A stretch of 64,000 nucleotides of DNA, taken from positions 94,608-158,607 of the forward strand of contig JACOWS010000002.1 in NCBI GenBank assembly GCA_016176685.1, given 5' to 3'. Below, piece after piece: positions 14,501-58,273 of the stretch. The position numbers and the translations under genes were made by a program. This stretch comes from Patescibacteria group bacterium. GTDB lineage: Bacteria > Patescibacteriota > Minisyncoccia > Phycocordibacterales > SBAW01. Below the pieces are notes generated by a model. The model searched no databases and was not told the DNA's origin. It worked only from the letters and a program-made list of their open reading frames with translations. Within the stretch, counting starts at the first letter, position 1. Every line of letters starts with the position of its first letter.

Positions 14501-14724
14501 GGAGGTGGCGGCAGTTCGCAGGAATCACCGTTCCAGGAGCCGCCGTCTGTAGTGCACTGCACATCGGCGCATGGCTCGGCATCTTGCTCGCCCGGCACAT
14601 TTGCGCACACGTCAACCGGAGGTGGAGCTTCTTCAGCCCGTACGACGATAGACCCGGCCCCGGCCGCAAAGATGAGAAAAAGGCCCGTCCATAGAAAGTA
14701 GCGCGATGCAGAGGATATGGTCAT
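11584..14724 (-). CDS. giant secreted surface protein: repeat modules + DUF11/CARDB-like domain + Gly18 linker + C-terminal peptidoglycan-binding (PG_binding_1-like) domain
   Basis: 1046 aa. Signal peptide. At least five copies of module TGEN.A....G.A.I.TGDAYA.ANV(I/L)N.VNTNI..S. Domain TVEYRFTVTNSGDADAEDVALKADF. Run of 18 Gly. C-terminus AEVVNLQAFLNAHQ...TGYYGPLTAAAVNAFQQKY typical of the PG-binding domain. Confidence 0.85.
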   Translation of the reverse strand: MTISSASRYFLWTGLFLIFAAGAGSIVVRAEEAPPPVDVCANVPGEQDAEPCADVQCTTDGGSWNGDSCELPPPPADEPAPVATSTPTTTATSTDEILPDELNTTIATSTDGTGGLVGGEIVTGDATASTTVDNELNTNIINVADTCSEDSDELCDAPGEEMNSSNLTASTTNEAELGSESETLATTGENMADGGVATSTIDTGNAAATSNVINLVNTNIFNSYGLILFLNQLFGGGFDLRDFNLSYFFDGEAGASQTVNETTGEPQCTLLTCLNASELNVVNDNTATVTNSVLVRASTGENVASSTESGGASINTGDAYAAANVLNVVNTNIINSSYLLVSFNNFGSLAGNITLPNADFFGKLFAHGGSAPAMNASTYGVNNTNDVNFVGTTTASAETGENVATTTGLGHGEVETGDAYSSATTFTDANGSYFGGTSAFFFFRVSGEWSGNVTGLPAGLSWVALPENSEGNSTSTVILVTSDNSGVELPEAPDANCKEKLGPVSNCYNSSHFLASSTNVAVVENNVDVSAETGANETLTEDGTGYINTGNAYAVANVINLINTNIVGRNWIFAVFNIFGDWSGDIAFGQSDLSLEAFTNATRAVLPGSTVEYRFTVTNSGDADAEDVALKADFDKNLLTFAADSGATDTDNGKKWNLGRVARGETRTFTYTAEVGDTPAGTSMTIPLTATVEGGDTAGFTVVTVDVTSPAPVVNNGGGGGGGGGGGGGGGGGLIAGITANGTYSATPDPKITVKKTLSIGTTTAPTMVDYQVVIENNTSAGALYHGLLTDTLYDPSGGVMYARSWDLETVAPADLITLSYSIAFGTSTKPGIYRNVARVTGMRNHPVVGNPFTPVEASSEVEFTEAGEVLGTSTVAIADDDEVDCKPLLTSFMSRSRKNNRAEVVNLQAFLNAHQNAHLPTTGYYGPLTAAAVNAFQQKYAAEVLTPLGLKTPTGGVYSMTQSKINQLACGGKAPIVVGAPAPQVAAAAAVHSAAPSAPKSEPKTPKSVPPSGAFLAPLAPDVEQAPAPKKAGWFSVLKGLLGGL

Positions 14725-14862
14725 GGGTAAATTCCTGTTATATAAGCGTATAAGCGAAGGCTGTCTTGCTGGTTTCCCTCTCTGAAGCCTCGTTCTTTTA
14801 TCATAAACAAGGCCTCATGAGAAGGAGGGAGTCAAAAATTGGCTCCCTTCCCTCAACTCGCA

Positions 14863-16974: not shown

Positions 16975-17005
16975 AATTGGTTTTACTAAATTAATAACTT
17001 GTTTG

Positions 17006-17437
17006 TTAGCGGGTGCGCGCGGCGTCCCTGGTTGAACAGCTGGATGTAGAGAGTCTGTCGCACTGCGTCTCCGGCTCCGGCGCCGGCTCATCGCCCCCAT
17101 CATCGCCGCCATAGCTGGTGTCTGGGGTGTTGGTTGGCCCTATGTTGACCACATACACCTCCACGTGCTCGTCGCCGGTGATGACCGTGCCGCCCTCGTT
17201 GCCGCCGGAGTCGGCGGTGCCGCTCGTTGAGTTTGAAATGTTGCCTGCACTTGGATTAATCGGAGCCGGAGTAGGAGTGCTCGGGGGAGCGTCGGTGGAG
17301 GGGCTCCCCGACCCGCCGCGGTCGCGTACCGAAGCGTCCCTGACCTCTGCCTGCGCGCTAAAGGCAAGCACATACATCGCAAGAATGGCGAGCGCCACCG
17401 CGACTACTTTTGTGGTGACCGAAAGTGTTTTAGTCAT
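17006..17437 (-). CDS. small secreted Pro/Gly/Ser-rich protein
   Basis: 143 aa. Signal peptide with AQA|EV cleavage-like site. Low complexity. Confidence 0.5.
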   Translation of the reverse strand: MTKTLSVTTKVVAVALAILAMYVLAFSAQAEVRDASVRDRGGSGSPSTDAPPSTPTPAPINPSAGNISNSTSGTADSGGNEGGTVITGDEHVEVYVVNIGPTNTPDTSYGGDDGGDEPAPEPETQCDRLSTSSCSTRDAARTR

Positions 17438-17595
17438 ACTTTTTTATACTTAGCTGATAATACTGTTAATGGTATACCCTCGGGAGAACCTTCTTTATTC
17501 CCTCAAGAAAGCTCTCCCGAGGGCGGCACCTCGGCCAAAGCCTAGGTACCGACCCCCAGAAAGAACCTTCGCGAACCGAACAAACCGAAACGAAA

Positions 17596-18309
17596 CTAGA
17601 TGCGAACGCGAACCAGCGTCGTGTTGAGTATGTTGATGCTGCCTGCCTCTGAAGTTGCAACACCTGTTGTAACCCAGCCGCCGCCAGCACCTGCGCCGCC
17701 ATTACCACCATCGCCGGCCTCTGCGCCGCCGTTGTTGTTGTCGCCGTCGTCAACTTCAACCTCGCCGCCTGTGCCACCGTTGCCGCCTGTGCTACCTGCA
17801 GCATTGTTGTCGCCAGTGCGTGCCTTAGCGCGAGTAGTGTTGTCGATGGAATTGCACCCGCAATCCTCATTTTCTACCTTAACCTTGATCTCGGAGCTGT
17901 TCATGTCCTCTCCGTCGAGGTCAATGTCAACGTCAGTTGCGTTGAGCGAGTTTGCCGAGCCAGCCGCCGCCCCTGCGTCGCCCGTCTCTACCGTGCCGCC
18001 GATACCGGCGTTGCCGCCGTTGCCGCCCTCGCCGGCCAATGCGCCGCCGTTGTTGTTGTCGCCGTCGTCAACCTCGATGTCGCCGCCCGAGCCGCCTTCT
18101 CCGCCCCTGCTACCGCCAGCCACATTGCTTCCGGTTGAAGCGCGAGCCGAGGTTGTGTTGGTGATCGAGCCGGAGTTTTCAGTCTCTATCTTAATCGAGC
18201 TGCTGTTCATAGCCGCCGAAGCAGGCATCGCAATCGCCAAGAGCGAGAGCGCCAGTGCCGCCGTCATAGAGAGAGCAACCGCGCGATTAAGTGTTGTGCT
18301 TTGAGTCAT
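17596..18309 (-). CDS. secreted protein with internal tandem duplication (Gly/Asn-rich, acidic)
   Basis: 237 aa. Signal peptide. Two ~95-aa repeats (AR/KA.TG.N.AGGS.GG.GG.GG.IEVDDGDNNNGGA.AG.GGNGG). Repeat tail ETGDAGAAAGSANSLNATDVDID resembles the TGDAYAAANVLNVVNTNI module of the 1046-aa protein. Confidence 0.65.
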   Translation of the reverse strand: MTQSTTLNRAVALSMTAALALSLLAIAMPASAAMNSSSIKIETENSGSITNTTSARASTGSNVAGGSRGGEGGSGGDIEVDDGDNNNGGALAGEGGNGGNAGIGGTVETGDAGAAAGSANSLNATDVDIDLDGEDMNSSEIKVKVENEDCGCNSIDNTTRAKARTGDNNAAGSTGGNGGTGGEVEVDDGDNNNGGAEAGDGGNGGAGAGGGWVTTGVATSEAGSINILNTTLVRVRI

Positions 18310-18882
18310 ATCTGTATTCTGTATTAATCTTTCTAATGTATAAATCTGTCATCCCGCTTCCGTACGGACAAGCGTGAAGCCAGGCATCGACCCGCGAACT
18401 GGACTTTATTAAGTACAGCTCACAGGAGCACTCGCCTTCCCCCGCGGGTGGTGCTGTGAACTTTACTGCCTGCTGCTGTCTTCCTGTTGTGCTGGTGTCA
18501 AGGTTCGTCCGGGAAACAAAAACGCGCAACACCTTGAGCGATGTTACGCTTTGTCTGACGCTATTCTGTTGTACAGAGAAAACAACAGCATAATTTTATG
18601 CCGCTGGTTTCCCCGCACACTCGCAACCAACCTGGCGCTGTGTACCTGTCCATTATTGAACACCGCCCAGGCATGTCAACACTTTTTTCCACTATCGAGC
18701 ATACTACGATATACTATAGAGGAGCGTGTCAAACTTTTGTGCGGGCGCGGAAAAAACAGAAACACTACCGCGGTTGCGTACGCGGGCAAGACGGGCCCCA
18801 AACCCTGGGAAACCAGCGGAAAACTGGAGTTTTTGGGGCCCCTCTCGCCCGCTTACTTTTATGGTAAGCGGGCCCTGTAGTT

Positions 18883-19881
18883 TTAAGGAAGCGGCGGGAT
18901 AGGCAGGTTAAGTGCGGCGCACGTGAGGTTGTTTATTTTGCGCAGGGTTGTTTTGTACACGTAACCGGTTGCGGTTTGGTTACTTTGCAAGCCAAACGGC
19001 ACCCACGGCGCAAGTATCTCGCCTGCGTACTTAAGTTGGAATGCGCGCACAGCCGCATCGGTCAGCGGGCCGAAATAGCCGGTCACCGGCAACCCCGAGG
19101 CCATATGTTCGTTGAGAAATGTTTGCAGTTTTTTTACCTCTGCCGAGTCGTTTTGTTTGCCGCGGCGCAAGTAGGAGTTTAGGTAGGGGCCGCAGGATGC
19201 TTCCGCCGGAGCCGCAACTTCTGCCACGGTCGTGGTACCTAATACTTCCCCGCCGCCGACTTGATATCCCACCGAAAGTGGGCCGCCTATAACACCATTG
19301 CCACCTCCTCCGCTCGAAGACCCCGAGCTGGGAGAAGGGCTGCCCCCTCCAGTATTGGAAGGGGGGGGGTTTGAATCGTCTTCTCCACCCCCGGTGTCGG
19401 TATCGCCATCTTCCTCGCCAGTGTCTCCCGTATCGCCAGAATCGCCGGTGTCGCCGGTGGCCTGCTCGACACAGTTACCTTCGCCATCAAGCTCGTACCC
19501 TTCAGGGACAGCTTCTTGCACGCCATCTATGTTTGGGCACAGGTCGGTTGGTGCCGGCGGCGGCACAAACGCCGCGCAGTCCGGGTCGGCAAGGTCTATA
19601 AGGCCGTCCCCATCGTTGTCCAGGCCATCGCTACAGAGCGCCTGCGTATTTTCGGGCTCTGTGGGTGTGGCATCGTCGGGGCACGAGCCGCCATCCAACA
19701 CCGGTATAGGCGTGCCGATACCGCCAAGCTCGGTAAAGACGAGACACACGATATCGCCGCCGAGCGATGCCTGTGCCACGTGAGAATGTATAAAAAACGA
19801 ACCGGAAAAAAACAGCCCGAGCATCATACCCGCAAACATAGTTGCGCAATGCGCAGAAAAACCCAGAGTTTTCATAAGCAT
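18883..19881 (-). CDS. secreted acidic protein with thrombospondin-type-3-like Asp repeats and C-terminal peptidoglycan-binding domain
   Basis: 332 aa. Signal/TM at N-terminus. DGDGLIDLADPDC and (GDT)n acidic repeats. C-terminus AEVKKLQTFLNEHMASGLPVTGYFGPLTDAAVRAFQLKYAGE is homologous to the C-terminus of the 1046-aa protein. Confidence 0.7.
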   Translation of the reverse strand: MLMKTLGFSAHCATMFAGMMLGLFFSGSFFIHSHVAQASLGGDIVCLVFTELGGIGTPIPVLDGGSCPDDATPTEPENTQALCSDGLDNDGDGLIDLADPDCAAFVPPPAPTDLCPNIDGVQEAVPEGYELDGEGNCVEQATGDTGDSGDTGDTGEEDGDTDTGGGEDDSNPPPSNTGGGSPSPSSGSSSGGGGNGVIGGPLSVGYQVGGGEVLGTTTVAEVAAPAEASCGPYLNSYLRRGKQNDSAEVKKLQTFLNEHMASGLPVTGYFGPLTDAAVRAFQLKYAGEILAPWVPFGLQSNQTATGYVYKTTLRKINNLTCAALNLPIPPLP

Positions 19882-20015
19882 TCCAGAAAAACAGCGAATA
19901 AAGAGTTATAGACAACCGACAGTACAGACTGCCAACTACCATATACTTCTTTGGTGCGCTGTCAAAATTGACAATACCTTTTGGCTATGTCAGAAATTGC
20001 TACCCTTTTTCGACG

Positions 20016-21113
20016 CTACCTCCTAGATTGTATAAGCGTGCGTATGGTGCGCCACAGCGTGGCGTCGCCCCGAGCGCTGTCGGGCAGATACCAGCCATCT
20101 CCCTCTTTGGCGCCGTACTTAAAGAACGCGACACCGATGAGATTTTCTGTTTTGAGCGCCTGGGTATAGTCGTTTATTAGGTGTGCGGTTGTGGGTTTAA
20201 CCCATATGGGCGGCTCCTCCCATACCCCGAGCGACGGGATAAAAACAACTTTTGGGTCAATGGCATAGATCGAGCGCGTGGCGCGAAGCATAACGGTTGA
20301 GACAAAGTCGGGAAAGTATTCGTCTACATTTGAGTAGGCATTGACCATCACTATGTCGGCAACATTGTTTGCAAAGCTGTTGCCCGGCCGGAAGAAGTCG
20401 TCGGCATAGTCATAAAAATACCAGCCGTTCATCCGTATCATCACCGGATGCGCCAAGTCGACACTCTTTACATCAAGGTAGGCCTGCCCGAGCTGTGCGG
20501 CCGAGAGAGCAAATTTTGTCTCCCACTGTGGGTCGGGCTGTATCCCGCCGGTGCCAAACGGGAATACGCCGCCGTCTTCGTTTGAAGTATCCCACGCATA
20601 CAAAGCCGGGTGGCCCTTCCATGCGGCAACCCACTGTTTAACCTTTTCGCTCTGCCACACTGGCTTTTGCCCAGGAATAAAGTTGTCGTCGCACGTATAG
20701 CCCCACTCCGCCTCCCCCGCTCCGGCATTGAGTATTACCTTGAGGCCGGCGTCTCGCGCGCTGTCGAGAAAGTACTGCACGTCTTCCCTACCGGCGCAGA
20801 TGTCGAAGTTGCCTTCAATGACGTCAAACCCGGCCTCTTTTATTGCCGAGAAGTCTTTTTGCGTAAGGCCGAAATGGTCGTATACCGCTTCCCCCACGTC
20901 TTTGAGTATGGCAAGAGTGCCGCCCTGCGGGGCGGGTGCGGTTGCAGAGAAGTTTGTTGTTGAAGCTTTTTCTGGCTCGCTCACGGATTGTACCTCTTGA
21001 GCGGTTTGCAAAGGAGCGTTTGTTGACGGCGGTGTACGGAGCGCGAGTGCGACAGCAAACACAACCACTGCTACTAGCGCCAGGGTGGTAATTAATTTAC
21101 TCTCGGTTGACAT
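20016..21113 (-). CDS. membrane-anchored TIM-barrel glycoside hydrolase (clan GH-A-like; family unresolved)
   Basis: 365 aa. N-terminal TM anchor. Candidate acid/base in AWDTSNEDGG and nucleophile in SLGVWEEPP. 17-nt overlap with the upstream CE4 gene. Confidence 0.6.
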   Translation of the reverse strand: MSTESKLITTLALVAVVVFAVALALRTPPSTNAPLQTAQEVQSVSEPEKASTTNFSATAPAPQGGTLAILKDVGEAVYDHFGLTQKDFSAIKEAGFDVIEGNFDICAGREDVQYFLDSARDAGLKVILNAGAGEAEWGYTCDDNFIPGQKPVWQSEKVKQWVAAWKGHPALYAWDTSNEDGGVFPFGTGGIQPDPQWETKFALSAAQLGQAYLDVKSVDLAHPVMIRMNGWYFYDYADDFFRPGNSFANNVADIVMVNAYSNVDEYFPDFVSTVMLRATRSIYAIDPKVVFIPSLGVWEEPPIWVKPTTAHLINDYTQALKTENLIGVAFFKYGAKEGDGWYLPDSARGDATLWRTIRTLIQSRR

Positions 21114-22341
21114 AGGAAGCGGAGTTGTAGTTTAGGCCCGCGCTCTCTCCATTACGGGCAAACAGCTCCACGTTGTCTATGAAGACACTGCCTTTTGTCC
21201 CTGGAGTCGCATACACCTGCACGGCGGCGGTCTTAACCAGCACCGAGGTCGGCTGGTACACATAGGAGCGGTCAATGACATTTTGGTTATAGAGCGCGCC
21301 TTGCCACTTGCCGGAGACCCAGGCGCCGCTCTCATCGTACTCGTCTATATAGAAGCCGACTTCTCCCGAAGTAAGATTTTGGCTATCGGTATAGACTCGC
21401 AGCCCGTAGGTTACCCCATGGGATACGGAGACTTTTTTTCCAAACAAGTGGCCGCCTTTTGCGGTGCCCACCACCTTGACGGTGTTTTTGGGTGTCGGGT
21501 AGCTGCCATTGTTGGCGGTATTGAGCTTCATGCTGTTTGTATTGTCGGTAATCCAGCCGGCAAGCTCCTCTTCGAAGCTCGGGTTTGCAATGAGGTTAAC
21601 GGACTGCATAAGCACTTTTGCCACCGTCTTTGTTCTAATGTTTTTTGCGTCCAGATAGTCAATAAAGCTCTGGAACGTAGCCGTCTCCCAGGAGTAGTCG
21701 TCCGTTGGATCAACCGCGGGCAAAATCTCGTGGAATACCAGCACCAGCCAGCCGTCTTGTGCCACCGCTTCGTCTACCCACACTTTTGCCTGTTCCAGAC
21801 TTGTTTGGTTTGTCACATAGCGCACATACAAAAGATATTTGTTGTACGGCCAAAAATTGAGCCCCTGGTTTGCGAAAGCGCGGTGAGAATTATATTTTTT
21901 GGCAATAGCTGAAAGCACAATATTGTCATAAGCGCCAAAAGGAGTCGCAAAGTCGGTTGGGGTGATACCTTTGGCCACAAAGTTGCTGTAGTCTTGGTTA
22001 AGTTCACTGCGAATGGTCGAAAGCGGCACCGTCGGCAGCTCTATGTGCATGAGGCCGTGTGCGGCTACCTCAAAGCCGGTGGTATGAAGGTTCTTTACCT
22101 GATTCCAGGTCATGTACCAATCACTTTGACCTACCAGCCCGGAGTTTATGTAGAAGGTGGCCGTTTGACCCGCGGCTTTCAATAGTTGTGCGGGAGTCTG
22201 GTACTGCGAAGGGTTGCCGTCATCGAACGTCAAGGTCACGGTGCCTGCGGCATGTGCGACGGCCCCGCCTATGACAAACAACATACTCACCACCGCAATG
22301 CGCAGAGTGTGGAGAGAAATATAATTGAAGGAGAGCTTCAT
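21097..22341 (-). CDS. polysaccharide deacetylase (CE4, NodB domain) with C-terminal CBM-like beta-sandwich
   Basis: ORF 21097..22473. Start at MKLSF...AVAHA signal peptide. TLTFDDGNPSQY and HGLMH NodB motifs. C-terminal NLIANPSFEEELAGW-type CBM4/9-like region. Confidence 0.8.
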   Translation of the reverse strand: MKLSFNYISLHTLRIAVVSMLFVIGGAVAHAAGTVTLTFDDGNPSQYQTPAQLLKAAGQTATFYINSGLVGQSDWYMTWNQVKNLHTTGFEVAAHGLMHIELPTVPLSTIRSELNQDYSNFVAKGITPTDFATPFGAYDNIVLSAIAKKYNSHRAFANQGLNFWPYNKYLLYVRYVTNQTSLEQAKVWVDEAVAQDGWLVLVFHEILPAVDPTDDYSWETATFQSFIDYLDAKNIRTKTVAKVLMQSVNLIANPSFEEELAGWITDNTNSMKLNTANNGSYPTPKNTVKVVGTAKGGHLFGKKVSVSHGVTYGLRVYTDSQNLTSGEVGFYIDEYDESGAWVSGKWQGALYNQNVIDRSYVYQPTSVLVKTAAVQVYATPGTKGSVFIDNVELFARNGESAGLNYNSASYVNRE

Positions 22342-22583
22342 ACTTTTAACTATAGTTACTAATCTAATAATAAATAGCTGTTGCGATGATAATTGATTAC
22401 GTATCGGCACAGCGTACAAACGACTAGACACGCGGACACGGCGGTGAGGGTTAAAAAGCCGATGCTTATCCATATATTGCCAGCACTCAAGAGCATATAT
22501 CCTGCGTACCCGCTCAAAGCAGCGGTACTGATTCCTGATATACCTGAACCGCCATTGAAATTAAACATATTATTAGTAGTATT

Positions 22584-23816
22584 TTAGCTTACTCGCGTAC
22601 CCCAACCGTCAGTATAGCCGACTAGCAGGAACAGTTTGCGACAGCGGGTAACCAGACCCTGCGGTACCAAACCGTTTTTTTGCGTCACGGTACGGGTTAA
22701 CATAGTAAAAATAAAAAACAGATACGAGCCGACCACCACCAGGGTGAGTATATTGCTGTACACAAACTCCGGGACCATACTCGCGCGTAGTACCCAGTCG
22801 TACCTATCCTTTTCCTTATAGAACCTCATAAGCCATAGTTGGAACAGGTACCAGACGGCAACTTGCAAAAGAGACAAGCCTATAATCCAGCGAGCGAGCT
22901 GCGGATGCGCCGCCCCGCCGCCAAAGAGCGTGAGCACTATAAGCAGGTCTATCATGAGCACGGTGGAAAAGAACACGCCGTGGCCCAGGAGGTCTTGCAA
23001 CACCGGGGCCGCGCGCTTGGCTTTTGCTATAACCGTAATGCCGCCGTAACTCCAGCGCGTTCTTTGCCGCCACAACACAGAAAAGCGCTCCGGCACTTTG
23101 GTCCACGCATAGGCGTTTATGGCTGCCTTCACGCGCCATCCGCGTGTTTTAAGCCGTGCCGTTATTTCGTAATCTTCTATCAGATGCTTTTCCGCAAAAC
23201 CCCCCGCCCCGAAAAGCGCGCGCGCTCTAAAAGCGGTGAGCATGCCGTGCATCACCAGCGGCCCGCCATAAAAACCCTCATCAGCCAAGCGTGTGGCGTT
23301 AAAACCAAGATATTCGAGCCCTTGCAAGCGCGTGAGTAAATTTTTATCTTTATTCAGCACCGCGCACTGGGAGCAGACTGCGCCAAGATTGTTGTCTGAC
23401 ATAAGTTCTGCAACCAGGTTTTGCACGGTGGTTGGACTAACGACCACATCATCGTCAAGTGTCAGAATAACATCTGGCATATACTCTTTTTTCCCTTCAA
23501 AGATATATTTGAGGGCATAATTGAGCGCCCCCGCTTTGAGTGCGTTGGCGGGTGTGCGAAGCAGGGTTATCCGGCTAGACACTCGAGCAATTTTTTCAAA
23601 AATTTGAAAGGGGTCTTTTTCGTCCCGCGGAGTGCAGTCGTCGACCACATATACCGCGAGGCGCGGATTCCACCGTATTAAATCTTCCACCAGAGTTACC
23701 GTGAGTTCTCCCGGTTTGTAGGTCGGGATTATGGCGCATACGCTTGTCTTCTCTACATCAAAAAATGATTTAGTGGCCCGAGTCGGCAGGATAAAATTTT
23801 TGAAATTGATTGCCAT
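22584..23816 (-). CDS. processive membrane GT2 synthase (cellulose/chitin/PNAG-synthase-like)
   Basis: 410 aa. VYVVDDCT, TLDDD, and the Q-x-x-R-W motif (WRQRTRW), followed by 4 TM helices. Confidence 0.85.
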   Translation of the reverse strand: MAINFKNFILPTRATKSFFDVEKTSVCAIIPTYKPGELTVTLVEDLIRWNPRLAVYVVDDCTPRDEKDPFQIFEKIARVSSRITLLRTPANALKAGALNYALKYIFEGKKEYMPDVILTLDDDVVVSPTTVQNLVAELMSDNNLGAVCSQCAVLNKDKNLLTRLQGLEYLGFNATRLADEGFYGGPLVMHGMLTAFRARALFGAGGFAEKHLIEDYEITARLKTRGWRVKAAINAYAWTKVPERFSVLWRQRTRWSYGGITVIAKAKRAAPVLQDLLGHGVFFSTVLMIDLLIVLTLFGGGAAHPQLARWIIGLSLLQVAVWYLFQLWLMRFYKEKDRYDWVLRASMVPEFVYSNILTLVVVGSYLFFIFTMLTRTVTQKNGLVPQGLVTRCRKLFLLVGYTDGWGTRVS

Positions 23817-31824: not shown

Positions 31825-38703
<6,879 letters not shown>

Positions 38704-49150: not shown

Positions 49151-52100
49151 ATGGCGGCTCCGTTTGTACACTTGCATGTCCACTCGCACTACTCCCTGCT
49201 TAAAGCCCTGCCCAAAATCCCCGACCTGGTAGCTGCGGCAAAAAAAGAGGGGTGCGAGGCGCTCGCGCTCACCGACCTTGGCAGCATGTATGGCACCATC
49301 GAATTTATAAAAGAGTGCCGCAAGGCCGATATAAAACCAATCGTCGGGCTCGACATCGCGGCCGAGGGAGGCGGGCGCATCATCCTTTTGGTAGAAAACG
49401 CGGCTGGGTACAAAAACCTGCTGGCGCTTATAACCGCCGCCAACTTTGCCGAGCACCAGGGCGAGCCATTGGTGACCCTTGAGGAACTTGCGGGCCGCAC
49501 CGAGGGGCTCCTTGCCATAGGAAATCATCTGGGCGGAGTTCGTGTGTTTGAGTATCAGAAACTGTTTGGCAAAGATAATTTTTATGCCAATGTCGCGATG
49601 CAGGAAATCTTTTATATTGCACCTGGGGACCGGCGCGCGTGGGAAACGCTGTGCGCCATAGGCGAGCGCGGGCCCGCCGACCGTGGCGACATAAACGACG
49701 AGGAGGAGAGCTACGCCTTCCCCACCGCTAAAGAAATGCAAAAACGCTTTTCAAAAGAAGCGCTCGATCAAACGCTGGCCATAGCGGCGCGATGCAACCT
49801 GGAGATTACTCTCGGCTCGTGGATATTCCCACCCTACCTTACCCAAAAAGGCGCTACCTATGACCAAGAACTGCGCCGCAATATAGAAAAAGGGTTGGCC
49901 GACCGCGGGCTCACAAAGACACCAGCCGTATGTGAGCGCATCGAGTACGAATATAAAATCATTTGCGACAAAGGGTACTCGCCGTACTTTTTGGTGGTTG
50001 CCGACCTTCTCCATTTTGCTCGCGAAAGCGGGATACTCGCCACCACGCGCGGCAGCGCCGGCGGCTCGCTCATTTCCTACTTAACCGGCGTCACCACCAT
50101 AAATCCGCTCGAGTATCTGCTACCCTTCGAGCGCTTTTTAAACCCCGAGCGCCCAAAAGCACCCGACATCGACATGGACTTTGCCGACAACCGCCGCGAC
50201 GAAGTTATAGACTACGTCCGCACAACGTACGGCGAAAACCGGGTAGCACAGATAGGCACCTTTGGTACTATGCTCGCGCGCGGGGTGGTGCGCGACGTGG
50301 CGCGTGCGCTTGGGCACCCGTACGGACTCGGCGACCGCATCGCGCGCGAAGTGCCGTTTGGTAGCCAAGGGTTCCCCATGACGCTTGACCGCGCGCTTGA
50401 AGAAAACTCGGCGCTGAAAAAAATGTACGAGAGCGAGCCCGACGTACACGACATTATCGACTTGGGAAAAAAAATAGAGGGCTGTGCGCGCCACATCTCG
50501 GTGCACGCGGCCGGGGTGGTTATCGCACCTGGACCCTTACTCGAGTACGCACCGCTTCAACGCGACCCAAAGGGGGGAAAAATTATCACCCAGTACGACA
50601 TGTACTCCATAACCGACGAGTATGGCGGCGTGGGGTTGCTCAAGTTTGACTTCCTTGGCATACGCAACCTGGCGATTTTAGCGCATGCGGTGAAGCTCGT
50701 GGAGCATATACGAGGGATAAGAGTAGACATAGAGCGCGTCCCCGTGGATGATGCCAAAACATTCGAGATGCTCGCGCGCGGCGAAACCGAGGGGACCTTC
50801 CAGCTGGGCGGCGCCGGGATGACACGGTATCTAAAAGAATTGCGGCCAACCTCCATACACGACATCAACGCGATGGTTGCGCTCTTCCGCCCCGGGCCGA
50901 TGGAGACCATTCCTTCCTACATTGAGCGCAAGCACAACCCCGCGCTCATTACCTACCTCGACCCGCGGATGAAGGATTATCTCGACTTTTCCTACGGCCT
51001 GTTGGTGTACCAGGATGACGTGCTGTTGAGCGCAATAAAAATCGCCGGCTACTCGTGGCTAGAGGCCGACGCTCTGCGCAAAGCGATGGGTAAAAAGATC
51101 CCCGCAGAGATGGAAAAGCAACGGGAAAAACTTATCGCGGGCGCGGTAAAAAACGGGATGTCGCCACAAAAAGCGGAACAGTTGTGGAAACTCATCGAGC
51201 CTTTTGCGGCGTACGGTTTTGGCAAGGCGCACGCCGCAAGTTATGGGCGCGTGGCATACCAAACCGCGTATATGAAGGCAAATTTCCCCGTGGAGTACAT
51301 GGCGGCGGTACTCACCGCCGAGGCGGGCGACATCGACACCGTGTCGGTGATGGTGCGCGAGTGCAAGCGCATGGGCGTGCCGGTCCTGCCGCCGGACATA
51401 AATGAGAGTTTTGGCGACTTTACCGTGGTGCTTAAGGGGTCGGGAAATCCTAAGGTGGAGCCTATTACTCGCTTTGCTCATGGCTCAGTCTCCACTTTAG
51501 GATTTCCCGACCCAAAAAAAGCTCCGCCTCCTGGGGGCGAGACTGAGCCGTCCGCAAAGCGGACTATAGGCTCGCCCCCAGGAGGCGGAGCTGCGGTAAA
51601 GGACTCGATCCGTTTCGGCCTTTACTCTATTAAAAATGTTGGCAGCGGTGTGGCCGACAGCATTATAGCCGAGCGTAAAGCACGGGGTCCTTTTGTATCT
51701 ATCTCCGACTTTTTGCGCCGCATCAAAGACCAAAACCTCAACAAAAGAGGGCTCGAGTCTTTAATAGAGTGCGGTGCGCTTGATTGTCTTGGCGAGCTTG
51801 GTTCGACAGACGCCGGCCGCGGCGCCATGCTCGCATCGATAGAGCTTTTGCTAGAGTATCACCGCGAAATGTCCAAAGAACAGCCGCAAGACTCGCTCTT
51901 TGCCGGGCAGGGTGACACGGCCGACATCACACTGCCGCCTGCAGAAGCCGCCACGCAAGCACAGCGCCTTGCGTGGGAAAAGGAGCTCCTTGGGCTCTAC
52001 GTTTCCGGACACCCGCTCGACCGGTTTACAGAACAACTTTCCAAACGGCCGATGACCTTGGAAGAGTTGCACAAAAAAATGACACCGGGTATGACCGCCA

Positions 52101-52333
52101 TTGCGGCGGGGATGGTAGAGAGTGTGCGCACCATATTAACCCGCGGCGGCGACCAAATGGCATTTGTCAAAATCACCGACCACAGCGGCTCGATAGAGGC
52201 GGCGGTTTTCCCCCGGGTGTTCGCCGAGCACAAAGACATACTCAAACCCGAGACGGTTATCGCTCTCAAGGGGCGCCTAAGCCAGCGCAACGGCGAGCTT
52301 TCCATGGTGGCCGACAAACTCAAGGTGCTGTAA
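49151..52333 (+). CDS. dnaE: DNA polymerase III alpha subunit
   Basis: 1060 aa. PHP domain HLHVHSHYSLL. Polymerase core. Low-complexity insertion around residues 780-830. Confidence 0.9.
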   Translation: MAAPFVHLHVHSHYSLLKALPKIPDLVAAAKKEGCEALALTDLGSMYGTIEFIKECRKADIKPIVGLDIAAEGGGRIILLVENAAGYKNLLALITAANFAEHQGEPLVTLEELAGRTEGLLAIGNHLGGVRVFEYQKLFGKDNFYANVAMQEIFYIAPGDRRAWETLCAIGERGPADRGDINDEEESYAFPTAKEMQKRFSKEALDQTLAIAARCNLEITLGSWIFPPYLTQKGATYDQELRRNIEKGLADRGLTKTPAVCERIEYEYKIICDKGYSPYFLVVADLLHFARESGILATTRGSAGGSLISYLTGVTTINPLEYLLPFERFLNPERPKAPDIDMDFADNRRDEVIDYVRTTYGENRVAQIGTFGTMLARGVVRDVARALGHPYGLGDRIAREVPFGSQGFPMTLDRALEENSALKKMYESEPDVHDIIDLGKKIEGCARHISVHAAGVVIAPGPLLEYAPLQRDPKGGKIITQYDMYSITDEYGGVGLLKFDFLGIRNLAILAHAVKLVEHIRGIRVDIERVPVDDAKTFEMLARGETEGTFQLGGAGMTRYLKELRPTSIHDINAMVALFRPGPMETIPSYIERKHNPALITYLDPRMKDYLDFSYGLLVYQDDVLLSAIKIAGYSWLEADALRKAMGKKIPAEMEKQREKLIAGAVKNGMSPQKAEQLWKLIEPFAAYGFGKAHAASYGRVAYQTAYMKANFPVEYMAAVLTAEAGDIDTVSVMVRECKRMGVPVLPPDINESFGDFTVVLKGSGNPKVEPITRFAHGSVSTLGFPDPKKAPPPGGETEPSAKRTIGSPPGGGAAVKDSIRFGLYSIKNVGSGVADSIIAERKARGPFVSISDFLRRIKDQNLNKRGLESLIECGALDCLGELGSTDAGRGAMLASIELLLEYHREMSKEQPQDSLFAGQGDTADITLPPAEAATQAQRLAWEKELLGLYVSGHPLDRFTEQLSKRPMTLEELHKKMTPGMTAIAAGMVESVRTILTRGGDQMAFVKITDHSGSIEAAVFPRVFAEHKDILKPETVIALKGRLSQRNGELSMVADKLKVL

Positions 52334-53697: not shown

Positions 53698-54280
53698 TTA
53701 GCCGAGTCTGAAGTGGATGCGCAGAGCCCGATCGTCTTCCACCCTATCAACGATCAGATACAAGACATCCCTACCCAATCCAAGCTCCGCTTTGAGTAAA
53801 ACAACAAACTCTTCACAATTATATGGATATATCCATACGCTATCCTGGAGTCGCACAAAACCGATACCAGTAAGTATTGCCCGCACCTCGCCACGGAGTG
53901 CGTCTTTCAGGGATATCAAAAATCACAACGCGCCACTTTTTATCCCATTTTTTGGGTTTTTTTACCTTGTAGCCGCGAAGTTCCCATTGAGCTACACAAT
54001 TCTTTCCTTTTTTAGTTAGTACAACAAAGGATCCCCGACGGGTCTTTTCCATCATAAGAAATCCCCCTGCGACGAGTCTGGAAATTGCTTTTTTTGTTTG
54101 ATATTTTTTCTGCCGTTCGTACTGCTTCAAAAAAGGTTTTAGCATTGATAGAGCGTTTGGGGCTATGAGTGCTGTGGAGATTACTCCAACCGCAGCTACC
54201 GAGCCGAGTACGGCACGCCGGACAGTGGTCATGCGCATTTTTTTCCGCAGGTCTTTCTCAAGAGATACAGGTGGTTTCAT
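53698..54280 (-). pseudogene. PaaX-like wHTH + Cas2-fold paralog 3, disrupted by a frameshift near 53900-53920
   Basis: Two overlapping ORFs. 53840..54280 ends ...KWDKKWRVVIFDIPERR (then out of frame). 53698..53919 is the C-terminal half ...LRGEVRAILTGIGFVRLQDSVWIYPYNCEEFVVLL. Restoring one A in a GAAAGA run reunites them. Confidence 0.55.
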
Positions 54281-54472: not shown

Positions 54473-55393
54473 TTATGCGCGGGCGCGAGAAATTTGCGCT
54501 GCGATGAACGGGTCGACACCGGACGGGATCTTGGCAGAGACCGGCTCGTTTTTGGAGAAAGTTGGCGCAGTTACCTCGGCTGACTTTTCAACACTCCGCT
54601 CTGCCGTAGGCGAACCAAAGAGAAACGAGTTCAGCGAGCGGTAGATGCCGGTCTGTACGCGCTTGACCACCAAGAGGTACGCGATGAAGAAGGCCCACAG
54701 CGCGAGGAAGCCCCAGTAGAGCGCGGTGCCAACCGGCCCCAGCTCCAAGCCCGTGTAGGGCACCTGCGAAAGGGTCACATACGGAGTGGTCGGGTTGTTG
54801 TAGACAACCGGGTTGTATTTGTAGCAGTTGGGATAGGTACCGTACCAGCCAGACTGACAGGCGGGCTGCGTGTAGGTATTGTAATAATTGTTGACCGGCT
54901 GTACCACCTGCGTCGCAGGAATATTGACCGTTACCGTATTGTTGTTGGTGTTAGTGTTGGTAACGGTAGTGGTCTGTGTTTGCTGTTGCTGTTGTGTTTG
55001 GGTCTGCGTCTGCGAACCGCCGCCGGTGGAGCCGGACGGGCCGTACGCAAAGCCGTAGTTGCTGTAAAAACCAGGAGAGGAATACGAGTATGAGGGATAG
55101 GAGTAAGAAGGAGTGGAGTAGCTGTACGAAGGATACGAATAGTCAATTGAGGAGGTGTAGCTCGGAGTATAGTAGTCGTAGGATGGATAAGAGTAGTCAA
55201 TGGACGACGTGTAGCTTGGAGTGTAGTAGTCGTAGGAAGGGTATGAGTAGTCTATAGAGTCGGTGTAGCTGGGGTAGTAGCCATAGTCTGCCGCATGAGC
55301 AACAGCCGGTGTGATAACCGGAGCGACAGAGAACACAAGCGCCGCAAAAGCGATGCTTACTGCACGAGGTGTGTTGGTCATGCTGTTTTTCAT
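54473..55393 (-). CDS. secreted Tyr/Ser/Pro-rich repeat protein with polyQ/T linker and C-terminal TM segment preceded by VPYTG
   Basis: 306 aa. Signal peptide. 3x 18-aa repeat SIDYSYPSYDYYTPSYTS then YSYPSYSYSSP heptad-like units. TQTQTQQQQQTQTTT. C-terminal VPYTG-LELGPVGTALYWGFLALWAFFIAYLLVV-KR. Confidence 0.7.
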   Translation of the reverse strand: MKNSMTNTPRAVSIAFAALVFSVAPVITPAVAHAADYGYYPSYTDSIDYSYPSYDYYTPSYTSSIDYSYPSYDYYTPSYTSSIDYSYPSYSYSTPSYSYPSYSYSSPGFYSNYGFAYGPSGSTGGGSQTQTQTQQQQQTQTTTVTNTNTNNNTVTVNIPATQVVQPVNNYYNTYTQPACQSGWYGTYPNCYKYNPVVYNNPTTPYVTLSQVPYTGLELGPVGTALYWGFLALWAFFIAYLLVVKRVQTGIYRSLNSFLFGSPTAERSVEKSAEVTAPTFSKNEPVSAKIPSGVDPFIAAQISRARA

Positions 55394-55558
55394 AAATTAA
55401 CGGCTTAACGATGCTATGTTATCACATCTAATAATTTTGTCAACTCCCCTCACGAGAGTCTAGCTAGGCACCTTGCAAGGCGCGCAGTTAGAAAATAGTG
55501 AAGAAAAATGGGAGGCGGGGGTTTGTGTATTGCTACACGCAACCCCGCCCCACCGATG

Positions 55559-56461
55559 TTATTGACGCACACCGCACACTTGGTGTGCGATGCCTGCCGG
55601 CATACCGTTGCGCGGCGGAATCTGGATATCATAACGATATCCAGCCGGCTTGCCACGGCAATTCGGGTCGTCCGCCCGGTCCGGCATGATTTTCTGGACC
55701 GCCACCGGGTCGGAGATGTGCAGGACGCATGCCCCGATTTCCCGGACGAAGACCGAGCCTGGGATTTTGCAGCCCCGGCGGCCCTGCTGTTGCTGCTGGC
55801 CCTGATACATGCCGGCCAGTTGAACCGGCTGCGGCTCGTCGGCGACCGGCGGCTGTTCACACCGCGCGAACTGGTTCGCGCGGTCCTCGGGCAACATGCC
55901 CGCGGCCCGCCCGGCCTTCCATCCGCACATGACTTCGACGTCATGTGAGGAAGGAGCGTAGGTCTGCAAAGCCTCCTCCTGCGATGCAGGTTGGTCGGCC
56001 TGTACCACCTGTTCTTCGGCAGGCGGCGGCAGGATTTGCTCCTCCCCGATCTTGACCGGTTCTTCGACCGGCTGGTCGAGGCGGTCGGCCAGCTTCTTGG
56101 TCGGCTGTTCGACCGAGGTTTTCTTTTCCTCGGTCGGGGTGGCCGGCAACTCGATCTTGGTCGGCGCGAAATACGTCGACTCCAACAACCAGTTGGACCG
56201 AAGGATGCCCAGCCCGGCCATAAAAAAGCTAAACAGCCCGGCCAGAAGGCCGACAAGAAAGAGGACCACAATAATTACGGTCTTCATCTTGCCGCCGGAC
56301 TTCGGCTTCGGCGAGTCCGGCGGCTCCGGCGTCGCGCCCGGGGCCGGACCAGTCGCCGCCTTAAGAGCGGCATTTTCCGCGGCGAGGCGCACGATTTCCT
56401 CGTGTGCCTCCACCAACCGGTCGGTTGGTGTTGGACGTTTCGTCACAGTCTTGGCCATCAC
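55559..56461 (-). CDS. hypothetical single-pass membrane protein with Pro/Glu-rich extracellular region and Cys-containing C-terminal domain
   Basis: 300 aa. TM helix VIIVVLFLVGLLAGLFSFFMAGL. Lies in the GC-rich patch. The alternative-frame ORF 55450..56271 is Arg/Ser-rich and was rejected. Confidence 0.45.
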   Translation of the reverse strand: MMAKTVTKRPTPTDRLVEAHEEIVRLAAENAALKAATGPAPGATPEPPDSPKPKSGGKMKTVIIVVLFLVGLLAGLFSFFMAGLGILRSNWLLESTYFAPTKIELPATPTEEKKTSVEQPTKKLADRLDQPVEEPVKIGEEQILPPPAEEQVVQADQPASQEEALQTYAPSSHDVEVMCGWKAGRAAGMLPEDRANQFARCEQPPVADEPQPVQLAGMYQGQQQQQGRRGCKIPGSVFVREIGACVLHISDPVAVQKIMPDRADDPNCRGKPAGYRYDIQIPPRNGMPAGIAHQVCGVRQ

Positions 56462-56615
56462 TGGCCTCCTTTCTGCCCCCGCAGGGGCGGTTTGTTATTA
56501 TTTCAGTACTTTCCCTCCTCCGCGGCACCTTCCGGCGCCGCGGTGGCGAAATTGTCTCCTACTTTAGCAAGGCCTTGCCTTGCTATTGCAGGGACATACC
56601 CGACCGCCTCTCGAT

Positions 56616-57257
56616 TTAATTCGAGGCGAGCGCGTATGTTCCCACAAACTCCGCCGTGACCACAAAACGGGCGGTCTTTTTGGCAAAGGACAGGTCGCAG
56701 GTCACCAACACCAGACGTTTGCCATCCTTGGGCATCTCTATCACATCCTCGTCGGCATCCGCAAGTTTGACCCCAACGACACTGTAGCGATACTCGGCAG
56801 AGCCGGAGTATACGCTCACCATCTGCCCGCTCTTCAAATTTTGTATCGAGTTGAAGGCCTTGTACGCCTGATTGTACACGACGGGCAGATTGCTCGAGTG
56901 CCCAAATAAAAGTACCGTCCCTTCCTCGCCAAGCAGAGCCGAGGTCGGGTAGCGCACCGCGCCCGAAAGGAGCGCTTGGTCGAGCACTTCTATGTCGGTC
57001 GAGGTCGGATTGTTGATTGCAACATCAAGGCCGATATTTTTGGCTACCACGCGCACAGGCGCCTCTTGCGCGCCACTTTGTGATAGTTCCTGTTGAGAAG
57101 CAGCGGGAGTCTGTGCCACCGCCGCCGTGGGGTCCGGCGTTGCGCCCACACCCCACAAAAAGGCGTAGGAAAGCAAAAATATGCCAACAAAGGTGGCCGA
57201 AAACGATTTCGGCTGGTTGAGTATGCGCGGTATGATGCCTCCTTTGCGAGTTTGCAT
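56616..57257 (-). CDS. sortase family transpeptidase
   Basis: 213 aa. N-terminal TM anchor. Catalytic His in LLFGHSS, Cys in LVLVTCD (TLxTC), downstream Arg. Confidence 0.8.
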   Translation of the reverse strand: MQTRKGGIIPRILNQPKSFSATFVGIFLLSYAFLWGVGATPDPTAAVAQTPAASQQELSQSGAQEAPVRVVAKNIGLDVAINNPTSTDIEVLDQALLSGAVRYPTSALLGEEGTVLLFGHSSNLPVVYNQAYKAFNSIQNLKSGQMVSVYSGSAEYRYSVVGVKLADADEDVIEMPKDGKRLVLVTCDLSFAKKTARFVVTAEFVGTYALASN

Positions 57258-57379: not shown

Positions 57380-58273
57380 ATGACTGAACACAAAAAAGAA
57401 GAGTCGGGTGTCCGCGAGCTTTTTCTGCGCACTGTGGCCATAGTTGGCTTGGTGGCCGTACTCTTGCTTGGCGCATGGGGCATTATCCTTATCGCCTTTA
57501 ACCTTCCCAACCTTTTTAGTACTCTCGGCGGGAGCGTCAGTTCACTCTTTGCTCCGTCACAGCAGCCGGAGAGCGCTACACCTGCCATCGGTGCTATCGC
57601 GCAAGACACACCCGCCACTGTGCCCACAACAAAGAGCAACGCTGCAGTTGCAGCAAAGTCTACCGCTACCGCAAGCACAGGAGGCGCCAGTGCAAAGTAT
57701 GTCGCGAGCGGCACGCGCACCAACCTCTATGGCGCCGCGGACCTTTCTGTGCGCATTCTTTCCGTTGTGCCTGCCGGCGCGCGCACCAACGTGCAGTTTG
57801 AAGTGCAAAACATCGGTTCCAATGTAACCCCAAGCAACTGGACCTTTGACGCACAGCTCCCGCTTACCCCCGCCTACACCTACCGCTCGCAAGGCCAGCA
57901 GGCGCTCTACCCGGGCGACAAGATTGTCTACACAATCGGCTTTGACACGCCTTACACCTATACCAACTGGTACTGCACGCTCCAGTACCCAAACTATAAC
58001 TGCCCGCAGTACAACTATTCGTACAACAATCAGTACCCGTACAACTACTACAACTCTGGTACGTGCTACCACTACGACGGATACAACAACTACCCCACCA
58101 CTTGCCCCGGTGTAAACTACAACCAAAATTACTACAGCAATTATATTTACGGCTCTAGCAACTATGCATACTTGCCGCAGCAGACGGGCCGCCTGGTCAC
58201 GGTCACGGTTGACCCATATAATTTGGTAGCCGACTACAACCGCGCCAACAACACCGCCAGCGTTTCTATCTAG
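57380..58273 (+). CDS. membrane-anchored protein with CARDB/DUF11-like beta-sandwich and Tyr/Asn-rich C-terminal region
   Basis: 297 aa. N-terminal TM anchor. LSVRILSVVPAGARTNVQFEVQNIGSNV domain. YNYSYNNQYPYNYYN... low complexity. LPQQTG near the C-terminus, without a following TM segment. Confidence 0.6.
   Translation: MTEHKKEESGVRELFLRTVAIVGLVAVLLLGAWGIILIAFNLPNLFSTLGGSVSSLFAPSQQPESATPAIGAIAQDTPATVPTTKSNAAVAAKSTATASTGGASAKYVASGTRTNLYGAADLSVRILSVVPAGARTNVQFEVQNIGSNVTPSNWTFDAQLPLTPAYTYRSQGQQALYPGDKIVYTIGFDTPYTYTNWYCTLQYPNYNCPQYNYSYNNQYPYNYYNSGTCYHYDGYNNYPTTCPGVNYNQNYYSNYIYGSSNYAYLPQQTGRLVTVTVDPYNLVADYNRANNTASVSI

Follow-up and report, generated by a model that had tools for sequence, protein, structure and literature searches.

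The window analysed here comprises 64,000 nucleotides (nt) of contig JACOWS010000002.1 from a Patescibacteria group bacterium (assembly GCA_016176685.1). Between positions 54473 and 57257 of this window three genes follow one another on the minus strand; in reading order they encode a sortase, a membrane protein of 300 amino acids (aa) and a secreted protein of 306 aa. This order had been proposed in a first-pass annotation of the same DNA, and the open reading frames (ORFs) bear it out. The 306-aa protein carries the pentapeptide VPYTG, which resembles the LPXTG-type sorting signals of sortase substrates, and is called the PYTG protein in the following. A fourth gene, which is divergent from the sortase gene, encodes a protein with a probable CARDB-type domain, the CARDB partner. 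The sortase, the PYTG protein and the CARDB partner are the conserved members of a gene cassette; the 300-aa protein occupies a variable slot in the middle.

The sortase matches the Pfam model Sortase (PF04203) over aa 74-204 with E=3.6e-17 and a score of 62.7 bits, the cutoff being 26.6. A linker of about 30 aa connects its transmembrane (TM) anchor to the catalytic beta-barrel. The protein is 100% identical to an NCBI entry from a 'Patescibacteria group bacterium' and 86% identical to one from Candidatus Adlerbacteria. In an alignment of 22 members of the sortase family, relatives with 56-86% identity, the catalytic residues H120, C187 and R197 are invariant. The class assignment by hidden Markov model, which had been recommended in the first-pass annotation, worked only in part: the general Pfam family is recognized, but no model of the classes A-F or GN fits. 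The NCBIfam class models have cutoffs of 140-166 bits, and the sortase scores only 19-30 bits where it is matched, namely 30.2/160 for class E, 29.4/158 for class GN (TIGR03784), 29.2/165 for class D, 19.7/160 for class C and 19.2/166 for class F. The models for classes A and B gave no match at E<=0.1, and the score with the generic NCBIfam model TIGR01076 was 29.1 bits against a cutoff of 39.35. A profile search of the PDB returned SrtA from B. anthracis (2kw8, E=3.7e-12) and SrtD from C. perfringens (4d70) as the best, though distant, matches. In an AlphaFold2 (AF2) model of the protein (pLDDT 81.4) the N-terminal TM helix is connected by a disordered linker to the eight-stranded barrel typical of sortases. 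A Foldseek search of the PDB with this model gave 132 matches at E<=0.001, of which the 50 best listed are sortases without exception; SrtA, SrtE, SrtD and SrtC are about equally close, with target-normalised TM-scores of 0.6-0.78 and 17-25% identity. Together, these results indicate that the protein is a genuine sortase outside every described class and that it is probably active.

The PYTG protein has the topology of a sortase substrate: a signal peptide, the PYTG motif, a TM helix and a KR pair follow one another, and VPYTG ends 5 residues ahead of the TM helix. The first-pass annotation had drawn attention to the VPYTG-TM-KR segment, which is indeed present and turned out to be the most conserved part of the protein. 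The unusual tail that it had described behind this segment is also real, although it comprises 61 residues and not 58. No model in Pfam or NCBIfam matches the PYTG protein of the window, and the module around the pentapeptide is absent from Pfam-A and NCBIfam release 20.

The module is nevertheless common. An exhaustive profile search in 1.84 billion representative proteins resulted in 885 clusters with E<=1e-3, 332 with E<=1e-10 and 139 with E<=1e-30. Among the matches listed the PYTG module extends to the C-terminal end of the protein. The cassette members in the homologue listings are all named 'hypothetical protein'. Alignments of the C-terminal half with its homologues cover 'PYVTLSQVPYTGLELGPvGTalYW...AYL..VKR' and then again the terminal 'D.FI..QI.R'. 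In 73 modules from related sortase loci the residues P-Y-T-G and L(-4) are invariant (73/73). Beyond the motif L+4 (71/73), L+6 (72/73), G+7 (72/73) and also G+10 are nearly invariant; within the TM helix the same is true for Y+14 (73/73), W+15 (72/73) and Y+27 (73/73), and the helix is followed by the basic pair K+32 (65/73) and R/K+33 (60/73). The first position of the pentapeptide is occupied by V, I, M, A, T or L, and not mainly by L (V 51, I 8 and M 4 of 73). This pattern also holds for 129 distinct modules. The mean column entropy is 1.18 bits in the TM helix compared with 3.03 bits just upstream of the module. Conservation extends into the tail, in which D294, F296 and Q300 are nearly invariant (alignments A1 and A3); the motif D.F[ILVM]..Q[ILVM] occurs in 127 of the 157 family members and the end reads '(G)ID.FI.SQI.R'. 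The ectodomains are hypervariable and largely unalignable, with 17.6% of the pairs being similar versus 100% of the module-plus-tail pairs. An N-terminal hydrophobic h-region was found in 139/146 family members, judged by hydropathy as a proxy and not by SignalP. The Cys-loop motif C-x(3-12)-YP-x(0-3)-C, commonly in the form CPxG[YT]xG[TS]YPNC (12 residues), is present in 47/157 ectodomains (loci L004-L126); this loop looks EGF-like.

The family falls into three types, in which between 41 and 288 aa follow the G of PYTG. Type 1, which includes the protein of the window and 127/157 proteins in all, has an ectodomain rich in Y/S/T/G/N with 10-22% Tyr, then PYTG-TM-K[RK] and a tail of about 76-124 aa with the ending given above. 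Type 2 proteins, often a second copy within one locus, combine a G/P/C-rich ectodomain with a tail of 41-61 aa. Type 3 (655-864 aa) accompanies the most divergent sortases, which are 47-50% identical to that of the window; the members listed come from the loci L064, L067, L069, L070, L072, L074, L075, L079 and L080. Their signal reads FVYLSE[VT]PYTG, the basic pair after the TM helix is missing, and the cytoplasmic region of 257-288 aa ends in 'SLTTAVDGSYS.G.TGVK.ALTRAL'. A Pfam search with the Type 3 tails, the large PYTG proteins and the recurrent clusters of middle-slot genes gave nothing above cutoff and only weak hints of Ig-like domains; the Type 3 cytoplasmic region may be an unknown domain that is fused to the signal. 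The fact that the flavour of the signal tracks the divergence of the sortase supports a functional coupling of the two proteins.

Next we consider the genomic linkage of the two genes. From species-representative genomes, namely Adlerbacteria, Kaiserbacteria, Nomurabacteria, Paceibacterota and Minisyncoccia metagenome-assembled genomes, 80 loci with relatives of the sortase were collected. In 55 of these the sequence continues for at least 5 kb behind the sortase, and 53 of the 55 contain a PYTG-TM gene downstream on the same strand, at a median distance of 1476 nt past the sortase stop codon. The two exceptions differ in kind. In L057 (CAYGIN010000027.1, 153-5852) the sortase gene directly abuts the genes for threonyl-tRNA synthetase and DnaE, and neither a middle gene nor a PYTG gene is present, while the locus is otherwise syntenic with the window; either the substrate gene was apparently lost in nature or the assembly has a gap here. 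L062 contains a divergent sortase paralogue in a different gene context. For the reverse test 80 metagenome loci were fetched by the PYTG module alone, and the 21 of them with at least 5 kb upstream were counted; a sortase is located upstream in all of these, and so is the CARDB partner. A homologue of the CARDB partner also divergently adjoins the sortase in 69 of the 80 genome loci. No other candidate substrate with a P.TG-TM arrangement occurs within 10 kb in any of the 80 loci. The link between the sortase and a protein with an LPXTG-like signal, which the first-pass annotation had read from a single locus, is thus seen in both directions (53/55 and 21/21). The cassette is lineage-wide and syntenic in the Paceibacteria (Adler-, Kaiser- and Nomurabacteria) and not patchy.

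Other genes occur next to these members. In six loci (L004, L008, L009, L011, L014 and L044) a second PYTG paralogue with the sequence 'SLSS[LI]PYTGLELGFWGT' lies directly upstream of the sortase gene on the same strand, between it and the CARDB gene (at about 8.7-9.9 kb in locus coordinates; 3354-4436 in L011). Directly downstream of the PYTG gene the window encodes a 146-aa protein (53840-54280, minus strand) with an N-terminal TM segment, which contains a PaaX-like winged helix-turn-helix/Cas2-like fragment (TIGR02277, E=3.9e-9, far under the cutoff). It was considered as a member of the system and dropped, since homologues are found in only 3/80 loci.

Table 1. Positions in the window of the genes, domains and motifs discussed in the text.
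Feature	Residues (aa)	Position (nt)	Strand	Remark
PYTG protein, 306 aa		54473..55393	-	exported type I membrane precursor, putative dedicated sortase substrate
Signal peptide (…PAVAHA/AD)	1-34	55292..55393	-	read from sequence
Tyr/Ser/Pro/Thr-rich low-complexity region	35-120	55034..55291	-	
Three 18-aa repeats	46-99	55097-55258	-	SIDYSYPSY(D/S)Y(Y/S)TPSY(T/S)(S/Y)
Gly/Gln/Thr/Asn spacer	121-157	54923..55033	-	read from sequence
Cys loop	179-190	54824..54859	-	CQSGWYGTYPNC
Conserved juxtamembrane module	204-220	54734..54784	-	PYVTLSQVPYTGLELGP (PYVTLSQ-VPYTG-LELGP)
Sortase-type pentapeptide VPYTG	211-215	54749-54763	-	
TM helix plus K244 R245	221-243	54659..54733	-	
Cytoplasmic tail, 61 aa	246-306	54476..54658	-	
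Tail-end motif VDPFIAAQISR	293-303	54485-54517	-	
Promoter-like site		55416..55443	-	TTGACA-16-TAACAT with TG extension; consensus scan, 10/12 matches
Variable middle-slot gene, 300 aa		55559..56461	-	coincides with the GC-rich patch
Middle-gene TM helix	61-87	56201-56281	-	
Sortase, 213 aa		56616..57257	-	N-terminal TM anchor, linker, catalytic beta-barrel
Sortase TM anchor	19-37	57147-57203	-	
Sortase catalytic H120 (FGHSS)		56892-56906	-	
Sortase catalytic C187 (LVTCD)		56694-56708	-	
Sortase catalytic R197 (TARFVV)		56658-56675	-	
CARDB partner, 297 aa		57380..58273	+	third conserved cassette member; lies outside 54473-57257
CARDB-partner TM helix 'LLGAWGII'	14-42	57419-57505	+	nearly invariant
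CARDB-partner Tyr/Asn/Cys-rich insert	190-271	57947-58192	+	

A catalytically conserved enzyme that is locked to one gene in both directions is most simply explained as an enzyme and its substrate. We consider it rather likely that the cassette encodes a dedicated sortase together with its cognate signal, a variant of the LPXTG type, and that this system is specific to the Paceibacteria (Patescibacteria). In this scheme the signal peptide would export the 306-aa protein and the C-terminal TM helix would retain the precursor in the membrane; the motif [V/I]-P-Y-T-G would thereby be held just outside the membrane, beside the membrane-tethered sortase domain. The catalytic residues Cys187, His120 and Arg197 would then cut the bond between Thr214 and Gly215, and the Tyr/Ser/Thr-rich low-complexity ectodomain would be passed to an acceptor amine, which is most likely that of a peptidoglycan precursor. 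The PG_binding_1 proteins encoded in the window imply that a wall exists for such anchoring. The product would be a hypervariable surface coat or adhesin, which is covalently attached. The tail of the precursor, or the TM-tail stub that the cut would leave, may have a function of its own in positioning, quality control or signalling.

The attributes of 'dedicated' systems have been described by Haft (10.1101/2023.06.07.544157). The PYTG system shares with them the regular adjacency of enzyme and target genes, the conserved signal residues and the N-terminal signal peptide, and fits them altogether except for the distance of the signal from the C-terminus. This exception is one of several points that weigh against a substrate role of the PYTG protein. 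The signal is not near the extreme C-terminus, as it is expected to be (Haft, 10.1101/2023.06.07.544157); 61 aa follow the KR pair here, and the extension after PYTG is 41-288 aa family-wide. Conserved residues within the TM helix fit the signals of intramembrane enzymes and not those of sortases (Haft, 10.1101/2023.06.07.544157). Both the TM helix and the end of the tail are constrained in sequence, which is unexpected for a peptide that is discarded after cleavage. The first-pass annotation had itself named a conserved tail as one of the two findings that would speak for a protein simply anchored in the membrane, and this half of its statement agrees with the occurrence of the tail motif throughout most of the family. 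Furthermore, the NCBIfam models for LPXTG anchors and other sorting signals do not match the PYTG module at E<=0.1, and the cleavage of PYTG by the sortase is something that we infer from the sequences.

The conserved TM helix and tail motif would also be understandable if the PYTG protein is stable and never cleaved. In that case the juxtamembrane PYTG-LDLG, the intramembrane helix and the cytoplasmic tail motif would together act as an interaction module, for example with the CARDB protein in a complex associated with the envelope or with division, and the sortase would serve another substrate or function as a scaffold. The Type 3 proteins, with their long tails, conserved ends and lack of a basic cluster after the TM helix, are consistent with such a role. 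The same holds for the TM helix of the CARDB partner, which is nearly invariant (mean entropy 0.74 bits) and helically periodic in its conservation, with a power at 100 degrees of 4.3x the mean. However, over all three types only the Tyr of PYTG and the sortase-consensus residues P, T and G are invariant, and these are located outside the membrane. The catalytic triad is intact across the sortase family, no other P.TG-TM candidate is found within 10 kb of the enzyme in the 80 loci, and the enzyme and the gene are linked in both directions. For these reasons we regard a permanently uncleaved PYTG protein as somewhat unlikely.

The second protein in question as a partner of the sortase is the CARDB protein. 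Behind its TM helix follows a disordered linker and then a beta-sandwich, probably of the CARDB type (aa 107-189 and 272-297), which is split by the Tyr/Asn/Cys-rich insert; some homologues contain an extra domain of the immunoglobulin (Ig)-like type. The protein of the window has no match in Pfam at E<=0.1 and none in NCBIfam, and precomputed assignments list PF07705 CARDB for about 15 among the 120 homologues listed. A Foldseek search with the AF2 model of the protein found the CARDB structure 3idu with a target-normalised TM-score of 0.62 and E=4.5e-3. The insert contains CT[LQ]QYPNYNC, which echoes the Cys loop of the PYTG ectodomains, and K181 in 'LYPGDK' is nearly invariant (alignment A4).

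These properties raise the question of whether the PYTG protein is ligated by the sortase to another protein, either the CARDB partner or a further PYTG subunit, which would build a pilus-like or heterodimeric covalent fibre that is anchored by the N-terminal TM helix of the CARDB protein. The presence of the CARDB protein in 69/80 and 21/21 loci, the Tyr-rich segments and the similar ...YPN(YN)C Cys loops of both proteins and the near invariance of K181 are compatible with this idea, and dedicated sortases beside their substrates are typical of pilus loci. The motif 'L.PG(D/E)K..' is, on the other hand, an ordinary CARDB strand motif, and K181 therefore need not be a nucleophile. The Pfam scan revealed no pilin motif and no signature of an isopeptide domain. 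The sortase is no closer to class C than to A, D or E, its model has no evident lid, and the ectodomain of the window's PYTG protein lacks a conserved Lys. Together, these results make it decidedly unlikely that the acceptor is a protein, and peptidoglycan stays the acceptor in the scheme that we favour.

The favoured scheme of a dedicated sortase and its substrate leaves room for a role of the membrane segments. Conservation along the TM helix of the sortase is helically periodic, with a power at 100 degrees of 3.9x the mean, as it is in the CARDB partner; in the PYTG TM helix the periodicity is weaker (2.1x at 100 degrees, with the maximum at 60 degrees). This periodicity in the sortase and the CARDB protein, taken with the conserved TM helix and tail motif of the PYTG protein, makes an intramembrane complex of the three proteins plausible. 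The same observations suggest a separate function for the cytoplasmic end, either before cleavage, in the positioning or quality control of the precursor, or after it. In the most far-reaching version of this idea the three proteins would belong to one intramembrane machine, in which a single sortase cut in the PYTG precursor covalently installs the hypervariable Tyr-rich coat, either on the wall or on the CARDB protein, and at the same time frees a conserved TM-plus-tail stub, whose ID.FI.SQI.R motif recruits a cytoplasmic partner or signals to it. We consider this machine unlikely as a whole. If it does exist, it would be a sortase-coupled device for positioning or signalling that is near-universal in Paceibacteria, and it would define a new sortase class and a new bipartite sorting signal with a part outside and a part inside the cell.

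The first-pass annotation had understood the ectodomain in a different way. It had compared the Tyr-rich repeats with the YSPTSPS heptads in the C-terminal domain (CTD) of RNA polymerase, had proposed an adhesive or cross-linkable surface polymer (dityrosine or dihydroxyphenylalanine (DOPA)-like), and had suggested that part of the sortase operon was acquired horizontally. The three 18-aa repeats are real: Tandem Repeats Finder detects in the PYTG gene a period of 54 nt in 3.0 copies with a score of 196. The peptides of repeat copies 1 and 2 are identical, and the DNA of the two copies differs in 9/54 nt, with every difference at a third codon position. The fact that these differences are only synonymous indicates that the repeat peptide is under purifying selection and does not reflect a recent duplication. 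This selection and the high Tyr content, 21% (35/166 residues) of the mature ectodomain and 10-22% in Type 1 proteins, could be expected of a cross-linked polymer. The spacing between Tyr residues, however, has a significant period of 18 (z=4.6) and none of 7 (z=0.7), and the best heptads deviate from YSPTSPS with 3/7 mismatches. The likeness to the CTD is thus confined to composition. Since the PYTG protein is exported, a mimicry of the CTD makes no sense. With respect to cross-linking, no gene for an oxidase or a tyrosinase is conserved in the cassette. On balance the data neither favour nor contradict an adhesive or cross-linkable Tyr-rich polymer as such.

The question of horizontal acquisition depends on the gene in the middle slot. 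A GC-rich patch between 55.45 and 56.5 kb had been noticed, and sliding windows confirm it: the GC content of 55450-56500 is 0.621, while the mean of 1-kb windows is 0.541 (standard deviation 0.030, z=2.7). A GC content this high is reached in 3/630 of the 1-kb windows, and the maximum of 0.627 starts at 55501. The patch is identical with the middle gene, which encodes an A/P/E/Q-rich protein and has a GC content of 0.632 and, at third codon positions, of 0.757 compared with 0.65-0.68 in its neighbours. The product begins with a cytoplasmic N-terminus and continues through a TM helix and a linker rich in P/E/A/Q into a C-terminal region that contains Cys; it has no match in Pfam or NCBIfam. 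Only two homologues, both weak, are detectable in the 80 loci, and both occupy the same slot behind the sortase, in L018, one of two direct phmmer hits, and in L030, which was joined to it by all-against-all clustering. The other loci contain 1-5 unrelated small genes in this slot. With just two weak homologues among 80 loci the middle gene was dropped as a candidate for a conserved member of the cassette. That the GC patch coincides with a gene whose homologues occupy this same slot is in keeping with a rapidly evolving slot that was inherited vertically and not with an import. The syntenic, lineage-wide occurrence of the cassette likewise argues against horizontal acquisition. A strict operon is not evident either. 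The intergenic gaps between the three minus-strand genes are 154 and 165 nt, and a promoter-like site precedes the gene of the PYTG protein 22 nt upstream of its ATG; this site is a pattern match only, and promoters of the Candidate Phyla Radiation (CPR) are poorly known. A second promoter-like site, again a pattern match, is located upstream of the CARDB gene. Altogether, a CTD-like or cross-linked protein from a partly imported operon is highly improbable as an explanation of this locus.

The likely sortase-substrate pair can be compared with known systems. The SrtA/LPXTG system (S. aureus and B. anthracis; 2kw8, 2rui) has the same beta-barrel fold and His-Cys-Arg triad, and its substrates have the same sequence of signal peptide, xPxTG, TM helix and basic cluster. 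In contrast to SrtA with its many scattered substrates, the PYTG system has one or two, always beside the enzyme. The signal departs from LPXTG in several respects: the pentapeptide is [V/I]PYTG, in which Tyr never varies, and a conserved L-[DE]-L-G comes next; the sequence of the TM helix is itself conserved, and the 41-288-aa extension carries a conserved terminal motif, which is ID.FI.SQI.R in Type 1. The enzyme itself differs from SrtA in that it misses all class cutoffs and has only the low identity to solved sortases given above. Sortases of class D (C. perfringens SrtD, 4d70) and class E (Streptomyces/Thermobifida SrtE, 5go6 and 9iok) are among the best matches in sequence and fold. They recognise the variant motifs LPxTA and LAxTG; the PYTG motif and the architecture of its substrate are different, and the scores with both class models are far from the cutoffs.

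Closer in genetic logic are dedicated one-to-one pairs. The class GN sortase of NCBIfam/TIGRFAMs (TIGR03784, 'marine') presumably pairs with an adjacent target. The score of our sortase with this model is far below its cutoff, the Patescibacteria have no outer membrane, and the motif is another one. In the JDVT-CTERM/MrtJ system (Haft) the pair is likewise defined by gene adjacency, and conserved residues occur inside the TM helix of the signal as in PYTG. In comparison with both systems the PYTG cassette adds the conserved CARDB partner and the cytoplasmic tail. A precedent for a functional TM stub is known from Streptococcus gordonii, in which the stubs of cleaved LPXTG adhesins (C-peptide) signal within the membrane, according to a passage of PMC11502775 in which this work is cited. 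This precedent, which involves intramembrane contacts, is an analogy only: the S. gordonii stub is short and sensed by a histidine kinase, whereas the PYTG stub would have a 61-aa tail (41-288 aa in the family) with a conserved terminal motif, and the cassette contains no kinase.

Some other parts of the window are also worth mentioning. Positions 31825-38703 on the minus strand contain an uninterrupted ORF of 2292 aa, in which RpoC domains (aa 1066-2170) come directly after RpoB domains (aa 19-1047); this order points to a fusion of rpoB and rpoC. Genes for surface proteins and polysaccharides are clustered on the minus strand at 11584-23816 and encode, among others, a 1046-aa protein with DUF11 and PG_binding_1 domains, a 749-aa protein with RTX nonapeptide repeats, a 332-aa PG_binding_1 protein, a polysaccharide deacetylase and a family 2 (GT2, chitin-synthase-like) glycosyltransferase. 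The DnaE protein (49151-52333, plus strand) contains a Pro/Gly-rich low-complexity insert …GFPDPKKAPPPGGETEPSAKRTIGSPPGGGAAV… at roughly aa 745-790.

Sortases are frequent in the CPR (Meheust et al. 2019, PMC6744442). The searchable literature mentions CPR sortases in general statements only, and contains no PYTG signal and no cognate substrate or motif. A link between a sortase, a CARDB protein and a Tyr-rich substrate in Parcubacteria/Paceibacteria was also not found in this literature, which largely excludes subscription journals, so that absence is no proof. What appears to be new in the present data is an unclassified clade of sortases, an invariant motif, a dedicated one-to-one gene arrangement that includes a third partner, and a signal that is not terminal and whose cytoplasmic end is conserved. 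With the conservation of its TM helix and its cytoplasmic end the PYTG signal breaks the rule of the 'disposable C-terminal peptide'. The combination of a sortase, a CARDB-TM protein and a PYTG protein provides an annotation rule for genes that are now called 'hypothetical protein'. The signal [V/I]PYTG-L[DE]LG can be tested directly with peptides such as TLSQVPYTGLELG, and it might serve as an orthogonal tag for sortase ligation.

The Patescibacteria/CPR represent a large share of bacterial diversity; they are for the most part uncultured and spend their lives attached to other cells, and the construction and decoration of their envelope are largely obscure. The cassette would provide an enzyme-substrate pair for the whole class Paceibacteria, and it points to an undescribed way in which Patescibacteria may dress their surface.

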